From: Candidatus Buchananbacteria bacterium
GTDB lineage: Bacteria > Patescibacteriota > Patescibacteriia > 2-01-FULL-39-33 > JBAYJR01
Length of the DNA: 64,000 nt
Direction: 5' to 3'
Assembly: GCA_041665005.1 (NCBI GenBank)
Contig: JBAYJR010000009.1
Coordinates: 203 to 64,202 of the forward strand
Both the position numbers and the translations under genes were made by a program. The notes under the pieces are model-generated. The model was not told the origin of the DNA. It ran no database searches and saw nothing but the letters and a program-made list of their open reading frames with translations. Below, one piece after another: positions 31,230 to 52,991 of this stretch; position 1 is the stretch's first letter, and each line of letters opens with the position of its first letter.

Positions 31230-31259
31230 GTTGCCTAATGGGCGACTTTTTGGTATAAT
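31230..31259 (+). promoter_or_regulatory. Degenerate AATCGCC-type hairpin (GTTGCC-TAAT-GGGCGAC) + T-run + extended -10 TGgTATAAT (31254-31259); only 8 nt from the ATG at 31268 (leaderless mRNA predicted)
   Basis: Member of the six-locus hairpin/-10 family; -10 to ATG spacing leaves no room for a 5'UTR/RBS. Confidence 0.55.
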
Positions 31260-31267
31260 TATTTTAT

Positions 31268-31720
31268 ATGGAAAAAGAAAAGACAGATGCTTTAATTAAA
31301 AGATATCAATTGGAACATTTAGTTCCTTTTGGATTGACAGCCATCTCAATTTATTTTTGGTGTAATTATTTTCAGCAAAGTAAATTTTATTTTTTTGGTT
31401 TATTTATTAACTTTGTTGGACTGATTATCTGGTGGTCTGCAAAATTAACCTTGGCTGAAAATTGGAGTGCTGGTTATGGGAAACCACAAGTAAAAAAATT
31501 GGTAACCAGCGGTATATATTCAAAAATCAGCCATCCCTTATATTGGGGAATAAATTTATGTTTAATTGGTTTAGTTTTAATATATCCAAAAGTTTGGTTT
31601 GCAACAATTGATTTACTAATTGTTGTCTATTTTTTTGTAAGGATGAAAATCGAAGATAAGTATTTAACAAAAGCAGTTGGTAAAGAATACCAAGATTATA
31701 AAAGAAAAACGTGGATTTAA
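31268..31720 (+). CDS. Isoprenylcysteine carboxyl methyltransferase (ICMT)/phospholipid methyltransferase-family membrane protein
   Basis: 4 TM helices; …GIYSKISHPLYWG… resembles the ICMT/PEMT substrate-binding motif; 150 aa. Confidence 0.65.
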   Translation: MEKEKTDALIKRYQLEHLVPFGLTAISIYFWCNYFQQSKFYFFGLFINFVGLIIWWSAKLTLAENWSAGYGKPQVKKLVTSGIYSKISHPLYWGINLCLIGLVLIYPKVWFATIDLLIVVYFFVRMKIEDKYLTKAVGKEYQDYKRKTWI

Positions 31721-31765
31721 TAAATTTTAACAAGGCGTTAGTTTTTTTCGGGGAGTGACAAGAAC

Positions 31766-31795
31766 GTTCCAACGTTGCCCCACAACGCCTGCAAA
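31766..31795 (+). repeat. Direct repeat copy 3: GTTCCAACGTTGCCCCACAACGCCTGCAAA
   Basis: Third copy, 620 bp after copy 2; core AACGTT-CC-AACGTT; followed by hairpin CTGCAA/TTGCAG. Confidence 0.7.
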
Positions 31796-31872
31796 TTTTT
31801 TGTATTGCAGAATTATTTGTTTATAAATTAAAAACCCCAATCATTATTGATCAGGGTTTTTTGATTTTAATC

Positions 31873-32358
31873 TCACTTGAAAATATTTTTCAGTGATTCG
31901 AAAAAACTTACTGGTGCTGGTTTGGGTTTGTCCGGCGGAGAGTATTTATTAGATAAAATTGTATCATCTCTTGTCACTGCTGCACGAAGAATTAAGTTTA
32001 TAACTTCCTCGTCATTAAGTGTAAACAATCGCCGGGAACCACCATGAGTGAATTCATATTTTTCTTCAGCTGCAGAGTAGTTAATTGGCAAACAATAGGC
32101 CAAAATAGTATATGCACGGCAGGCGGCAAATGGTTTTTCTAAAAAAGCTATACATCCAAGTCCTACATCCGAGCCACTACCTCTTAATGCTAGACGGCAA
32201 CCAAAGTTTGTTTTTTTTAGTTCAAGTCTTAATTTTGGATCTAGTCTTTCATTCAGAGCATTAAATTTTTGCCACAGCAAATTCATATTATTTTTGTGTG
32301 AATTTGCCTCATAATCAGGCGCTATTCTCTTTTTGATTTCTTCTTCTTGCCAGTCCAC
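31873..32358 (-). CDS. Hypothetical protein (161 aa), GTG start
   Basis: Own minus-strand promoter TTGACA-N17-TATACT (rc of 32422-32427 / 32399-32404) and AGGAGG RBS (rc of 32365-32370) 8 nt before GTG. Confidence 0.55.
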   Translation of the reverse strand: MDWQEEEIKKRIAPDYEANSHKNNMNLLWQKFNALNERLDPKLRLELKKTNFGCRLALRGSGSDVGLGCIAFLEKPFAACRAYTILAYCLPINYSAAEEKYEFTHGGSRRLFTLNDEEVINLILRAAVTRDDTILSNKYSPPDKPKPAPVSFFESLKNIFK

Positions 32359-32398
32359 AGTAGATTCCTCCTTTTTTGATAGTTTATTCTAACGTTTA

Positions 32399-32427
32399 AG
32401 TATAGTAAAGATGTTAAATTTTGTCAA
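32399..32427 (-). promoter_or_regulatory. Sigma70-type promoter on minus strand: TTGACA-N17-TATACT
   Basis: rc of 32399-32427 reads TTGACAaaatttaacatctttacTATACT; drives the 31873-32358 gene. Confidence 0.55.
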
Positions 32428-50267: not shown

Positions 50268-50297
50268 GACACCTCGGAGTAGGGTTTATATAAAAAT

Positions 50298-50999
50298 ATG
50301 ATTGAATTAAAAAATGTAACCAAGGTCTACAAGACTGGTTCCACCGAGTTTGAGGCGCTTAAAGGGGCAACATTTAAGATTGCTGACGGCGAATTTGTGG
50401 CGATTATGGGACCATCGGGTTCGGGCAAATCAACGTTAATGCATATTTTAGGTGCTTTAGACAAACCAACCAACGGTACTTATTTTTTGGACAACAAAGA
50501 CGTTTCAACTTTAACTGAAGATGAATTAGCTGATATTAGAAAAAATAAAATTGGTTTTGTTTTTCAAAGTTTTAATCTATTGCCGCGGGCGACGGTTTTA
50601 CGTAATGTGATGTTGCCATTAATTTATGCCAATGTTGATAAGCAGGAGAGAGTAACAAGAGCTGAAGCTTCTTTAATGGCGGCAGGATTGGATAAGGAAC
50701 ATTTTTCTCATCTATCTAATCAACTTTCTGGTGGGCAAATTCAACGAGTGGCGATTGCACGCGCTTTGGTTAACAATCCTTCACTAATTTTGGCGGATGA
50801 GCCAACAGGAAATTTGGACACCAAAACCGGTGAAATTGTTTTAGCTACTTTTCAAAAATTAAATTCTGAACAAGGCAGAACTATTATTTTAATTACCCAT
50901 GAACACGAAGTAGCAGAACATGCGGATCGCATTATTTTTATTAGAGATGGTGAAATTGTTAGTGATAGTAAAAATTCTCGTAAGCTAATAATTAAATAA
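50298..50999 (+). CDS. ABC transporter ATP-binding protein (MacB/LolD-type)
   Basis: Walker A …GPSGSGKST…, signature …[15 protein letters not shown]…, Walker B …[11 protein letters not shown]…. Confidence 0.93.
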
Positions 51000-51001
51000 A
51001 T

Positions 51002-52246
51002 ATGACAATTACTGATATTTTTGAAGAGACCTATTTTGCGCTTTCAGCTAACAAAGCTCGCTCCAGCTTAACGGTGCTTGGTATTGTTATTGGTATTGGG
51101 GCAGTGATTGTAATGATGGCGATTGGCACTGGCGCGACCAGCTCAATTAAATCTAATATTCAGTCTATCGGTTCAAATATGATTACCGTTTCTCCGGGAA
51201 CGCAACGCGGGGTCGGTATGATGGTTAGCGGCGGTCGGGGTTCAGCTAAGTCATTAAAACTCTCTGATGCGGAAGCAATTATTGCTCAAGTAGCTAACGT
51301 GAAGGCGGTTTCGCCGGAAGTTTCGGGACGTTATCAATTAACCGCTAAGGGTACTAACACCAATACTAGCGTAGTGGGAGTGACTGCAGCTTATGCTGAA
51401 GTAAGAAGTTTGGAAATGGACGATGGTTCTTTTATTACGGCCCAAAATAATAGCGATACTTCCAAGGTAGCGGTTTTGGGTCCAACAGTGGTAGAGGATC
51501 TTTTTGGCGAAGACTCTGACACAAGCTCCGTGATTGGTCAAATTATCCGGATTAAGAGTAACAAAACCAGTATTGATGTTAAAGTAGTTGGTGTAACCAA
51601 AGCTAAGGGTGGCACCGGTTTTGGCAGTACTGACAATCAGGTTTATGTTCCGTTAAGCACTGCGCAACGTTTTTTATCGGGTAATCAATATTTGACTGGT
51701 ATTTCAGTTTCTGCGGCTGACGCCGATTCAACAACATTAGTACAAGAAGATATTACTACTTTGTTATTATCGTTGCATAAAATTACTGACTCAACTAAAG
51801 CCGATTTTAGCACTATTAATCAAGCAGATATTGCCGAAGCTGCTTCTAGTGTTGTTAATACTTTAGCTACTTTATTGGCGGCAGTAGCGGGCATCTCTTT
51901 GGTGGTTGGTGGTATTGGAATTATGAATATGATGTTGACTACGGTTACGGAGAGAACAAAAGAAATTGGTTTACGTAAATCAATTGGCGCCAAAGGCAAG
52001 GATGTCAGCATTCAGTTTTTAGTAGAAGCAATCACGCTTACTTTTCTGGGTGGGTTTATTGGAGTAATTGGTGGCTGGTTAGTGTCTTATGGTATGACTT
52101 ATTTTAATATTACCCAGACCAAGGTATCATTGTTTTCAGTTTTGTTAGCGTTTGGTGTTTCGGCTTTTATCGGTATTGTCTTTGGTTATTATCCAGCCCG
52201 GCGGGCAGCCAAGCTTAATCCAATTGACGCACTTCGTTATGAATAA
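51002..52246 (+). CDS. ABC transporter permease, FtsX/MacB family
   Basis: N-terminal TM + large periplasmic domain + 3 C-terminal TM; …ERTKEIGLRKSIGA… FtsX motif. Confidence 0.9.
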   Translation: MTITDIFEETYFALSANKARSSLTVLGIVIGIGAVIVMMAIGTGATSSIKSNIQSIGSNMITVSPGTQRGVGMMVSGGRGSAKSLKLSDAEAIIAQVANVKAVSPEVSGRYQLTAKGTNTNTSVVGVTAAYAEVRSLEMDDGSFITAQNNSDTSKVAVLGPTVVEDLFGEDSDTSSVIGQIIRIKSNKTSIDVKVVGVTKAKGGTGFGSTDNQVYVPLSTAQRFLSGNQYLTGISVSAADADSTTLVQEDITTLLLSLHKITDSTKADFSTINQADIAEAASSVVNTLATLLAAVAGISLVVGGIGIMNMMLTTVTERTKEIGLRKSIGAKGKDVSIQFLVEAITLTFLGGFIGVIGGWLVSYGMTYFNITQTKVSLFSVLLAFGVSAFIGIVFGYYPARRAAKLNPIDALRYE

Positions 52247-52442
52247 GAATAAATTAAATCAGATAGTTGATTTTTGTTTAGTAATTCTGCTGATAATTAA
52301 TGTTGTTTCGGTTGCGTTTAGAAGCGGTAGGGAGATCCATGTAATTAGCGGCGTGATTTTTGTAATTTTTATTTTAGTACATTTATTTTTACATTGGTCA
52401 GGAATTTTTAGAATCATAAAAAATATTTTTTTAAATAAGTAA
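52239..52442 (+). CDS. Possible small 2-TM membrane protein (67 aa)
   Basis: ATG 52239 inside the track ORF 52152-52442; overlaps the permease stop; weak. Confidence 0.3.
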   Translation: MNKNKLNQIVDFCLVILLIINVVSVAFRSGREIHVISGVIFVIFILVHLFLHWSGIFRIIKNIFLNK

Positions 52443-52467
52443 TTTTATTAATTATTAAGAAAAAACT

Positions 52468-52899
52468 ATGAACAAAAAAATAATTACGATTGCGGTAGTG
52501 GTGGTAATTGTTCTGGGGGCCGGATTTTTTTATGGTGGAATGAAATACGGCCAGGACAAAAAGTTTAAATCAAATGGTTTGGAGTTTAATGGCGGCTTGC
52601 CAAATCAAAACAATTCAACCCAGGCTCGCTCTAGCACTAGAGGTAACGGAGCTGGCGGTGGCTTCGCTAGTGGTGATATTATTGCTAAAGACGATAAAAG
52701 TATAACAATTAAATTAAACAATGGAGGTTCTAAGATTATTCTTTATGCCAGCTCTACCCAGATTACCAAGGCCGCCACAGGCAGTATTGATGATTTAAAA
52801 GTCGGGGCAGGGGTAATTGTTAATGGTTCGGCTAATGCTGACGGTAGTATTACGTCGCAGTCAATTCAAATTCGTCCTGCTTTACCGGTTAGCAAATAA
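52468..52899 (+). CDS. Hypothetical secreted/anchored protein (143 aa), Gly/Asn-rich
   Basis: N-terminal TM/signal; no motif I recognise. Confidence 0.5.
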   Translation: MNKKIITIAVVVVIVLGAGFFYGGMKYGQDKKFKSNGLEFNGGLPNQNNSTQARSSTRGNGAGGGFASGDIIAKDDKSITIKLNNGGSKIILYASSTQITKAATGSIDDLKVGAGVIVNGSANADGSITSQSIQIRPALPVSK

Positions 52900-52960
52900 A
52901 TTGATGGTTTGATAGTTATTCTTTAGTTTTTAAATTAATAGTAGATATTAATTAGCAAAA

Positions 52961-52991
52961 AATCGCCAAGTTGGCGATTTTTTGCTATAAT
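52961..52991 (+). promoter_or_regulatory. Best copy of the family: perfect palindrome AATCGCCAA-g-TTGGCGATT (52961-52979) + TTTT + TGcTATAAT (52986-52991)
   Basis: 9-bp arms with 1-nt centre, i.e. more a DNA-level palindrome (operator-like) than an RNA hairpin; cupin gene ATG 37 nt downstream. Confidence 0.6.

Follow-up and report, generated by a model that had tools for sequence, protein, structure and literature searches.

A conserved hairpin stem fused to extended −10 promoters recurs at intergenic sites of a Candidatus Buchananbacteria genome and patchily across Patescibacteria

The window, a stretch of 64,000 nucleotides from a Candidatus Buchananbacteria (Patescibacteria/CPR) MAG, contains six intergenic copies of a cassette of about 35 bases. 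Its layout is an A-tract, a (R)TCGCY-loop-RGCGA hairpin and a T5-6 run, followed in five of the six copies, at a fixed spacing, by an extended −10 element (TGnTATAAT or TGnTATAGT). All six sites lay within a few bases of where the initial annotation had placed them, and the five fusions of the T5-6 run to TGG or TGC and then TATAAT or TATAGT were as it had described, as was the lack of a −10 in the copy at 41368. The stem TCGCC...GGCGA, which had been attributed to every copy, was exact in four of the six; copies 1 (31230) and 2 (32496) were degenerate, with the right arm GGCGA in common and pairing partly by G·U wobbles. The gene identities proposed from the sequence were borne out by Pfam (ICMT/PEMT, Nudix, beta-CASP MBL, cyt-b5, ferric reductase, ECF sigma, HlyD/MacB efflux and cupin).

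All copies are on the + strand. Module 1 (31224..31259), one of the degenerate copies, consists of an A-tract (31225-31229), the hairpin GTTGCC-taat-GGGCGAC with two U·G wobbles (31230-31246), T5 (31247-31251), TGG and the −10 hexamer TATAAT (31254-31259). The ATG of an ICMT/PEMT-family gene is at 31268, and the 8 nt between −10 and ATG (31260-31267), correctly counted in the initial annotation, predict a (near-)leaderless mRNA. The predicted fold of module 1 was −16.1 kcal/mol for sense RNA versus −11.4 kcal/mol for antisense, and an independent promoter scan scored TTGCCT-17-TATAAT with TG at 10/12. Module 2 (32490..32525), also degenerate, has the hairpin GTCGCTT-aat-AGGCGAT (32496-32512), T6, GG and TATAAT (32520-32525), and folds at −9.9 kcal/mol in the sense versus −3.3 kcal/mol in the antisense direction. 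It lies in a divergent gap 5′ of a Nudix gene (ATG 32568) with no + strand gene upstream, and its minus-strand neighbour (31873-32358) has a promoter of its own, TTGACA-17-TATACT, at 32427-32399. Module 3 (33967..34002; hairpin GTCGCCA-gtg-TGGCGAT 33973-33989, T6, GG, TATAAT 33997-34002; −14.0 kcal/mol) stands 47 nt 3′ of the stop of a 313-aa gene, scored 10/12 in the promoter scan (TCGCCA-17-TATAAT with TG), and is followed by a 66-aa ORF and then by beta-CASP MBL, GDSL lipase and acyltransferase genes.

Copy 4, which lacks a −10 (41364..41396; A5-TCGCC-aagtc-GGCGA-T6-A-T6; −12.1 kcal/mol), occupies a convergent gap 72 nt 3′ of the stop of a 95-aa gene, and a separate terminator, at about 41420-41449, serves the opposing gene. 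Module 5 (45240..45274; hairpin ATCGCCA-aag-TGGCGAT 45245-45261, T6, GC, TATAGT 45269-45274; −10.7 kcal/mol) is located 50 nt 3′ of the stop of an M23 peptidase gene and precedes an operon for cyt-b5, ferric reductase, ECF sigma and HlyD/ABC/MacB efflux proteins (Pfam). Module 6 (52957..52991) is a perfect copy, A6-TCGCCA-agt-TGGCGA-T6-GC-TATAAT with its −10 at 52986-52991, found 63 nt 3′ of the stop of a 143-aa gene and 5′ of a cupin gene (ATG 53029). Its hairpin is equally stable on both strands (sense −15.6, antisense −15.8 kcal/mol), so it could be a bidirectional terminator. A variant with another stem (14255..14289, + strand; hairpin AGATGCC-aagcc-GGCATCT, then T5-GC-TATAAT; −12.1 kcal/mol) lies between secY (stop 14235) and adk (ATG 14323), whose products were identified as SecY and ADK; its 17-nt hairpin keeps the same register to the −10 as the TCGCC modules, and its differing stem (GATGCC, at 14259) had been recognised earlier.

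The 18-mer AATCGCCAANTTGGCGAT gave 8 strand-hits in the window against 0.25 expected, a number reached by 0 of 100 shuffles; mismatches numbered 0 at 52961, 1 each at 41367 and 45244, and 3 at 33972. TCGCC-N5-GGCGA was found four times (0.22 expected) and GGCGRYTTTTTGNTA six times (0.03 expected), and the top family of an independent repeat finder (D1, 41 nt) comprised exactly the six sites. Stem identity was linked to promoter fusion. With seed matches excluded, the TCGCC-type stem was present in 9 of 18 fused hairpins versus 23 of 325 stand-alone hairpins (Fisher p=4.7e-6), and the core 4-mer GCGR in 9 of 17 (53 %) versus 14 of 262 (about 5 %). Within the window, five of six fused hairpins were TCGCC-type versus one of about 12 stand-alone hairpins. 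Stand-alone terminators at the same loci had varied cores (GCCC, GGTG, GCAC, GGGC and others).

When 185,579 species genomes were scanned with the pattern TCGC-N7-GCGAY-T5-G-S-TATA, at least 119 loci matched, of which no more than about 5 are estimated, by our own arithmetic, to be chance matches. The same stem was found in more than 100 other genomes and did not give way to variable stems as more loci were seen; conservation of the stem sequence itself and not just of a hairpin, as the initial annotation had argued, was thus upheld. Among the matches listed, 81 carried a Patescibacteria label, from many classes, and 15 were labelled 'uncultured Gammaproteobacteria', of which at least six were syntenic with, or 50-70 % protein-identical to, Patescibacteria-labelled loci; only Haemophilus, Streptococcus hillyeri and Paenibacillus, with one locus each, were clearly non-CPR. 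Among 887 kb of loci, most of them non-CPR, there was a single match, and IMG/VR viral contigs gave none. Ten unbiased loci (212 kb) of ABY1 relatives contained no cassette, and the secY-junction element was not conserved in four relatives. The absence from the ten loci indicates that occurrence in Patescibacteria, wide as it is, is patchy, and the cassette is not a general CPR architecture. The loci of the census come from genomes picked for at least one seed match and are not a prevalence sample.

Positions left open by the search pattern were analysed in 119 unique modules. The stem edges were strongly biased (x1 = C 80 %, x7 = G 91 %), the A-tract at −41..−36 was about 75 % A, and the loop was unconstrained. 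Around the start, −8 was A in 75 %, −7 T in 97 %, −1 T in 52 % and +1 A in 69 %. The distance from the −10 to the start codon peaked at 6-9 nt (22 modules), which probably represents leaderless mRNAs; no start codon was found 10-15 nt after the −10, beyond which lay a broad leadered class. These positions behave as would be predicted of a working promoter/TSS element. With extended −10 (TGn) sigma-70/sigma-A promoters in general the cassette shares TGnTATAAT, a T-rich stretch 5′ of the TG, a weak or absent −35 and, across genomes, a +1 purine placed 7 nt downstream of the hexamer. Unlike in such promoters, −36..−15 of the cassette is not free spacer but a conserved hairpin and T-run.

The hairpins also have terminator-like properties. 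Predicted folds of the copies ranged from −9.9 to −16.1 kcal/mol (z −4 to −6), and five of the six copies and the secY variant lie 24-177 nt 3′ of a co-directional stop codon. Pairs at x1/x7 were T-G in 17 and C-A in six of the 119 modules, and in 113 independent modules the sense hairpin was the stabler in 38 and the antisense hairpin in 15 (p=0.002). Such G·U wobbles would favour a sense-strand RNA hairpin over a symmetric DNA operator. A co-directional ORF is missing upstream of about 7-22 % of modules, window copy 2 among them, and good hairpins are kept there all the same, so termination of an upstream gene is not the whole reason for the hairpin.

None of the explanations tested accounts for the fixed stem sequence. 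The cassette resembles intrinsic (Rho-independent) terminators in its GC-rich stem-loop directly followed by a U-tract and in the position of most copies soon after a stop codon, and a 5′ A-tract renders several copies symmetric, as in bidirectional intrinsic terminators. It might be a local terminator style of AT-rich compact genomes, with promoter adjacency arising from short spacers and no sequence-specific function. The number of sequences open to a short GC-rich stem is small, these CPR genomes are compact with short spacers, the T-rich stretch before TGn is general here and would favour overlap with a U-tract, and TCGCC-type stand-alone terminators exist (window 41368, L059, L077, L092 and L110). 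However, the disparity in GCGR between stand-alone and promoter-fused hairpins, the diversity of stand-alone cores and a spacing to the −10 essentially fixed at T6 make this quite unlikely. Ordinary intrinsic terminators conserve structure and not stem sequence, whereas the cassette has one dominant stem (TCGCC/GGCGR), only among promoter-fused hairpins, and some copies lack an upstream gene that would call for termination. The initial annotation had instead suggested an operator for a single regulator. In its broadest form, ATCGCC-N5-GGCGAT would bind a conserved Patescibacteria protein (a global repressor/activator or a general transcription factor) over −36..−20, the hairpin being a by-product of the dyad. 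The strong link of a sequence-specific stem to promoter fusion at fixed spacing fits this, as do half-sites whose centres are 11 bp apart, the spacer between them being unconstrained, well-formed palindromes kept in divergent gaps that need no terminator, and the same sequence in several CPR classes without common flanks. It is nonetheless unlikely, given the RNA-like strand asymmetry of wobbles and stabilities described above, the presence of GGCGGT variants and absence of CCGCC...GGCGA variants, a sense strand that is rich in A at x2 and at x6, the two loop-edge positions, in place of complementary bases, and the classic terminator signature of a flanking A-tract and T-run. No candidate protein was identified. 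The 90 proteins encoded downstream represent 83 Pfam families without a functional theme (gyrB, tRNA synthetases, PBPs, ATPases and hypotheticals among them), which speaks against a regulon.

The other suggestion of the initial annotation, a dispersed repeat, does not fit well either; as a whole, the interpretation given in that annotation is partly supported. A REP/MITE-like palindrome of about 35-40 nt carrying a promoter, spread by duplication, by gene conversion or by a hairpin-specific transposase both inside a genome and from one genome to another, would fit the density of copies (six within 22 kb of the window, five within 8 kb of locus L064), within-genome pairs with common flanks (L064 3261/6766, L087, L023), AAGTTCYAGAA upstream of window copies 2 and 3, the similar loops of copies 4-6 and a nearby mobile element with a rolling-circle Rep-like gene. 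Like REP/BIME and Correia-type repeats, some of which have promoter or terminator activity, the cassette is a short multi-copy intergenic palindrome. However, it is much shorter (about 35 nt), and its similarity ends at the functional core (~35-41 nt). A few segmental duplicates aside, identity within genomes barely exceeded that between genomes, at 1.89 versus 1.56 of 5 for loops (p=0.04) and 4.8 versus 3.7 of 12 for flanks; loops and flanks thus differ between copies, which argues against copy-paste. No transposase association was seen, viral contigs held no pattern match, and the same core in distant CPR classes would demand constant horizontal spread of a 35-nt unit, so that a repeat of this kind is very improbable. 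Patescibacteria are naturally competent, and the stem could in principle be a DNA-uptake sequence, AATCGCC occurring 28 times in the window versus 7.4 in dinucleotide shuffles. In Neisseria (DUS) and Pasteurellaceae (USS), pairs of uptake sequences kept as terminator hairpins provide a precedent for a stem sequence conserved genome-wide (PMC1852404). This is hardly credible here: a maximal-order Markov model predicts 26.6 AATCGCC, leaving no half-site excess beyond codon usage, single copies in coding sequence share no extended context, uptake sequences are lineage-specific whereas the cassette core spans several classes, and fixed fusion to a −10 would be left unexplained.

The reading to which we lean, with modest confidence, is a terminator-promoter junction with two functions, in which the constraint on the stem comes from the promoter. 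Each copy would be a compact junction between two transcription units. In RNA arriving from upstream, A-tract/TCGCC-loop-GGCGA/U6 would fold into an intrinsic terminator, which copies with an intact A-tract would form in both directions; in DNA, the T-run would serve as the T-rich −20..−15 stretch and supply the T of the TGn element (−15/−14) before a consensus −10. The next transcript would begin about 7 nt after TATAAT, sometimes at the start codon itself. A terminator about 15 bp from the −10 may also allow local re-initiation by the polymerase that has just terminated; RNAP is described as able to remain on DNA after intrinsic termination and to re-initiate nearby (PMC6978380, PMC6978322). 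Coupling of promoters to terminators is reportedly widespread in bacteria (bioRxiv 10.64898/2026.08.19.745784), and T7 class II terminators are reported to act as TGn promoters (bioRxiv 10.64898/2026.02.12.705533). The systems in these four reports resemble the cassette in the overlap of signals of adjacent units and dual use of T-run and TGn, but the accessible text of the reports concerns model bacteria and general coupling and describes no superphylum-wide fixed stem.

In such a junction the stem sequence would be held by a promoter-side need and not by termination, either a holoenzyme contact at the −35/spacer or some factor; a trans-acting factor, akin to the operator idea, may lie behind the constraint. 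The hairpin spans −36..−20 and, as the initial annotation had it, overlies the −35 position, the left arm TCGCCA (−35..−30) falling exactly where a 17-bp spacer would put a −35 hexamer. In these genomes, further promoters of the extended −10 type have TTG at −35..−33, and non-hairpin promoters have T at about 0.46-0.51 at −19..−16. A −35 rationale for the stem is weak, because TCGCCA is a poor match to TTGACA (4/6 positions), the right arm (x7) is conserved at least as well as the left (x1), and the better variant, wobble-paired TTGCC...GGCGA, is rare, window copy 1 being its sole clear case. Promoters with an extended −10 also depend little on a −35.

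Six copies of a cassette of about 35 nt, consisting of an A-tract, a TCGCC-loop-GGCGA hairpin, a run of five or six T residues and, in five of them, an extended -10 element, lie on the plus strand of the window at 31230, 32496, 33973, 41368, 45244 and 52961 (copies 1 to 6). The sites proposed in the initial annotation were borne out, with matches to its 18-mer at 52961 (no mismatches), 41367 and 45244 (one each) and 33972 (three). Eight strand-hits to the 18-mer were found in the window, where 0.25 were expected, and no shuffled sequence reached this number. TCGCC-N5-GGCGA occurred four times in the window (0.22 expected) and GGCGRYTTTTTGNTA six times (0.03 expected), while the top family returned by an independently run repeat finder comprised exactly the six cassette positions. 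The six sites are genuine and exceed chance expectation by a wide margin in this window of about 37 % GC. The source is a Candidatus Buchananbacteria MAG (Patescibacteria/CPR), and the SecY encoded in the window is 100 % identical to an NCBI protein assigned to that organism. The gene calls of the annotation agreed with Pfam. The claim that all copies share one stem stood only in part, as the stem is degenerate in copy 1 (GTTGCC-taat-GGGCGAC) and copy 2 (GTCGCTT-aat-AGGCGAT), where pairing relies partly on G·U wobbles; the right arm, GGCGA, is kept in both. An extra lone left arm, AATCGCC, is present at 45196-45202, just 3' of the M23 peptidase stop and 48 nt upstream of copy 5, and could be the relic of an earlier hairpin or a chance match.

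Fusion of the hairpin to a promoter was confirmed for five copies, which pass through T5-6 directly into TGGTATAAT, TGCTATAAT or TGCTATAGT. A TG at -15/-14 and a TATAAT-like hexamer were present in TGGTATAAT (three times), in TGCTATAAT (copy 6 and the secY variant) and in TGCTATAGT (copy 5). Copy 4, in a convergent gap, has no -10, as had been described, and the element between secY and adk (14259) shares the layout and register of the copies, with a different stem (GATGCC). Under E. coli numbering conventions, with the -10 hexamer TATAAT set at -12 to -7, the A-tract occupies -41 to -36, the left arm TCGCC(A) -35 to -30, the loop of 3-5 nt about -30 to -26, the right arm (T)GGCGA -26 to -21, T6 -20 to -15, G -14 and S (G or C) -13. 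A sigma-70 scan rated TCGCCA-17-TATAAT (33974) and TTGCCT-17-TATAAT (31231) at 10/12, each with TG. These data show an extended -10 promoter overlapped, at a fixed spacing, by a hairpin and U-tract that resemble an intrinsic terminator.

One genome from each of 185,579 species was scanned with the pattern TCGC-N7-GCGAY-T5-G-S-TATA. At least 119 loci matched, and an arithmetic estimate gave no more than about five chance matches in the whole collection. By record title, the matches listed included 81 loci from Patescibacteria (Buchanan-, Komeili-, Kuenen-, Magasanik-, Staskawicz-, Nealson-, Moran-, Taga- and Doudnabacteria, Paceibacterota, Parcubacteria and Saccharibacteria), 15 from 'uncultured Gammaproteobacteria', nine from 'bacterium' or 'uncultured bacterium', and one each from Atribacterota and Streptococcus, together with ten Haemophilus and two Paenibacillus matches that each represent one orthologous locus. 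At least six of the loci titled 'uncultured Gammaproteobacteria bacterium' (L082, L013, L041, L033, L108 and L113, all from TPA MAGs) were syntenic with, or had 50-70 % protein identity to, Patescibacteria- or Saccharibacteria-labelled loci by local BLAST, with six consecutive ORFs matching between L082 and L103. The public labels of these loci are therefore probably wrong.

The pattern had no matches in 2.9 million viral contigs. A set of 80 metagenomic loci obtained through the beta-CASP MBL protein, mostly non-CPR and independent of the motif, was used as a negative control; none of the 80 was syntenic, and the 887 kb contained one module, in the closest relative. Ten loci (212 kb) from ABY1-class relatives with SecY or ProRS homologues of 65-73 % identity yielded no TCGCC-type cassette and hardly any -10 fused to a hairpin. 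The secY-adk junction element was not kept in four relatives (SecY identity 69-70 %), one of which had a separate terminator with TGCTATAAT after it and the rest none. Six ProRS-anchored loci from relatives contained no modules, which rules out the cassette as a universal CPR promoter architecture. Density was high elsewhere, with five or six copies in 22 kb of the window, five in 8 kb of a Saccharibacteria locus (L064) and three or four in 7 kb of a Nealsonbacteria locus (L040). The cassette is therefore regarded as widespread, with heavy use confined to some genomes or regions.

On the terminator side, each of the six copies, like the secY variant, has a stable GC-rich stem-loop followed by T5-T6, with folding energies of -9.9 to -16.1 kcal/mol and z values of -4.0 to -6.1. 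In the degenerate copies 1 and 2 the antisense fold was weaker than the sense fold (-11.4 vs -16.1 and -3.3 vs -9.9 kcal/mol, respectively). Copies 1, 3, 4, 5 and 6 and the secY variant lie 24-177 nt 3' of a co-directional stop, and copy 2 occupies a divergent gap in which the minus-strand neighbour has its own TTGACA-17-TATACT promoter. Across genomes, a crude ORF criterion placed 77 of 103 modules in co-directional positions and up to 23 of 103 beside a divergent nearest neighbour, and by similarly crude ORF calls seven modules lacked an open frame on their own strand in the preceding 400 nt. Hairpins of modules without an upstream co-directional gene were nearly as stable as the others (mean -9.0 vs -9.9 kcal/mol). 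A plain-terminator model does not cover everything, because copy 2 and, by the crude criterion, other modules lie in divergent gaps; the hairpin may shield the promoter against any incoming transcription or may have a promoter-intrinsic role. No Rfam 15 family matched the cassette at the gathering threshold, five tRNAs being the only matches in the window. A perfect 10-bp bidirectional terminator, ATAAACTCCA-loop-TGGAGTTTAT, with T-runs on both strands, was observed at 53548-53573 between the cupin gene and a convergent 266-aa gene, an example which shows that stand-alone terminators here use unrelated stems.

The seven free positions of the search pattern (N7) provide information on pairing. 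Among 119 unique modules the inner stem pair (x1/x7) was C-G in 89, T-G in 17, C-A in six and T-A in three. GGCGGT variants, with U·G pairs, recurred, and the mirror variant CCGCC...GGCGA was not seen in the fetched loci. The loop edges (x2/x6) were A-rich at both ends on the sense strand and not complementary. Where the stability of the sense and antisense hairpins differed by more than 1 kcal/mol, the sense strand was favoured in 38 and the antisense strand in 15 of 113 roughly independent modules (binomial P=0.002, Wilcoxon P=0.0003). These biases argue moderately, and not decisively, for selection on pairing of the sense-strand RNA, since part of the asymmetry arises where a G that precedes TCGC pairs with the fixed T-run.

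On the promoter side, positions left free by the pattern were also biased in the 119 unique modules, with A at -8 in 75 %, T at -7 in 97 %, T at -1 in 52 % and A at the seventh base past the hexamer (+1) in 69 %. The nearest start codons had a bimodal distribution, with 22 at 6-9 nt past the -10, none at 10-15 nt and a broad class at 19-50 nt. By these comparisons the -10 was shown to carry cross-genome signatures consistent with function, and a start about 7 nt past the -10 would, on this indirect evidence, be sensibly placed for the downstream gene. Approximately 20 % of cassette promoters had a start codon 6-9 nt past the -10 (for example L023, L032, L034, L056, L084, L098, L120 and, in the window, the start codon at 31268), which implies that leaderless mRNAs may be frequent in cassette-bearing Patescibacteria. 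The distances from -10 to start codon for the five fused window copies were 8, 42, 109, 42 and 37 nt; the 8-nt gap of the ICMT-family gene falls within the 6-9 nt class and supports the earlier prediction that its mRNA is leaderless. One locus, L022 (5033-5071; Candidatus Staskawiczbacteria MHOO01000009.1), carries a fully symmetric TATACC-A6-TCGCC-N5-GGCGA-T6-GGTATA, in which the hairpin is common to two divergent -10 elements and the search pattern matches both strands.

In the mechanism proposed for the cassette, upstream transcripts would end in the U-tract, the next transcript would begin 7 nt past the -10, and the terminator, about 15 bp from the -10, could pass polymerase to the next unit. 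This hand-on is proposed because RNAP is reported to be able to remain on the DNA after intrinsic termination and re-initiate close by (PMC6978380, PMC6978322).

To relate stem sequence to promoter fusion, a census was made of all hairpin plus T-run sites in the fetched CPR loci, all of them drawn from genomes that had been selected because they carry the motif. Seed matches were left out, and the census is therefore biased against an association between stem and fusion. TCGCC-type stems accounted for nine of 18 fused sites and 23 of 325 stand-alone sites (Fisher P=4.7e-6), and the core 4-mer before the T-run was GCGR in 9/17 fused and 14/262 stand-alone sites. The corresponding proportions of TCGCC-type stems in the window were 5/6 fused and one of about 12 stand-alone. 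Stand-alone terminators in the same loci had diverse cores (GCCC, GGTG, GCAC, GGGC and many more), so the TCGCC stem is not simply a local terminator style. These counts show that stem identity depends on promoter context, something in the promoter abutment apparently selecting the TCGCC stem. A stem that is fixed only beside a promoter points to an undescribed sequence-specific contact, and the choice of TCGCC could possibly come from a holoenzyme contact with the spacer or from a binding factor. We consider conceivable, though unlikely, the fuller proposal that TCGCC/GGCGA is the site of a trans-acting component widespread in Patescibacteria, either the RNA polymerase holoenzyme reading a lineage-specific -35 or spacer element or a dedicated DNA- or RNA-binding protein. 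Such a component would physically link the end of one transcription unit to the start of its successor, a sequence-specified terminator-promoter grammar peculiar to these reduced genomes. Optimization of the -35 as the reason for TCGCC was kept only as a weak sub-hypothesis. The left arm, at -35 to -30, has T, G, C and A in common with TTGACA, and non-hairpin promoters of these genomes have TTG at -35 to -33. The argument is weak because few of the expected TTGCC variants occur, conservation of the right arm equals or exceeds that of the left, and extended -10 promoters need little -35.

Other explanations for a conserved stem invoke a shared regulator or shared descent. The initial annotation had suggested, as one option, an operator for one regulator, and this is disfavoured: 90 downstream proteins belonged to 83 Pfam families with no coherent function, the largest groups being DUF7670 (five, mainly from one orthologous locus) and Cupin_2 (four), and they included gyrB, tRNA synthetases, PBPs, P-type ATPases, cupins and hypotheticals. 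Such varied families make a specific regulon unlikely, and a general factor is possible. The half-sites are symmetric in the core as DNA, with deviations leaning towards G·U pairs on the sense strand and non-complementary x2/x6. The other option of the annotation, a dispersed REP- or MITE-like repeat, predicts likeness by descent, and the alignment of the window copies showed no conservation beyond the core. Identity within genomes was hardly above that between genomes in the loop (1.89 vs 1.56 of 5, P=0.04) and the upstream flank (4.8 vs 3.7 of 12), and three evident segmental duplicates were the sole exceptions to low within-genome likeness. These comparisons speak against a dispersed repeat.

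A precedent for terminator stems of conserved sequence is the DNA-uptake sequence (PMC1852404). This explanation was rejected for the cassette: the half-site occurs 28 times where a maximal-order Markov model predicts 26.6, and isolated copies lack a common extended context. A genomic island or cassette array was considered since the window copies adjoin an integrated element, but it was also rejected, as the modules of L064 and L040 sit between ordinary genes (prfB-ftsEX neighbours, DUF218, dehydrogenase, GTPase and MgsA).

Patescibacteria make up a large part of bacterial diversity and are mostly uncultured, and to our knowledge their transcription signals are experimentally almost unknown. 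The parts of the cassette, an intrinsic terminator and a TGn promoter, are textbook elements, and the cassette combines both. One preprint reports terminator-promoter coupling as widespread in bacteria (bioRxiv 10.64898/2026.08.19.745784) and another describes T7 class II sites as terminators doubling as TGn promoters (bioRxiv 10.64898/2026.02.12.705533). The records and excerpts returned by a literature search contained no description of a fixed-sequence stem tied to such a fusion and common to Patescibacteria classes, and no account of CPR promoter or terminator signals. If the 35-nt cassette both ends and starts transcripts, it offers a testable model of how unit borders are set in very compact genomes; a stem contact that proved to involve a protein or a preference of the holoenzyme would add a new element to what is known of promoter recognition in bacteria. 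The cassette may also help to annotate leaderless genes, transcription start sites and the limits of operons, give the few Saccharibacteria amenable to genetics a ready-made insulated promoter, and serve as a natural system for studies of termination-coupled re-initiation.

Other repeats and mobile features were observed in the window. An integrated mobile element at approximately 24870-30000 adjoins a four-tRNA cluster (24206-24881). It carries genes for a serine recombinase, a REP_ORF2-G2P-like replication protein, a HicA toxin and a DUF4145 protein, and cassette copies 1 to 3 begin just downstream of it. A second repeat, GTTCCAACRTTGYMCCAYARCGC, occurs three times on the plus strand (30623-30645, 31147-31169 and 31766-31788), one copy lying shortly 3' of each of three consecutive small plus-strand genes (195-aa, 116-aa and ICMT-family). 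This repeat has no strong fold, had no match in viral contigs, was present among the other fetched loci only in L001 and L002, which are contigs of the same species, and looks like a putative cassette-boundary or recombination site beside the integrated element. A block of 40 nt that resembles a promoter (T-run, TTGACA, about 17 nt and a -10-like sequence) is present twice, at 38991-39030 and 39375-39414, flanking a small GIY-YIG gene (39109-39369) that lies shortly before proS. Because the block is duplicated on both sides of the gene, this arrangement suggests that a mobile GIY-YIG gene may have inserted there and duplicated the proS promoter.
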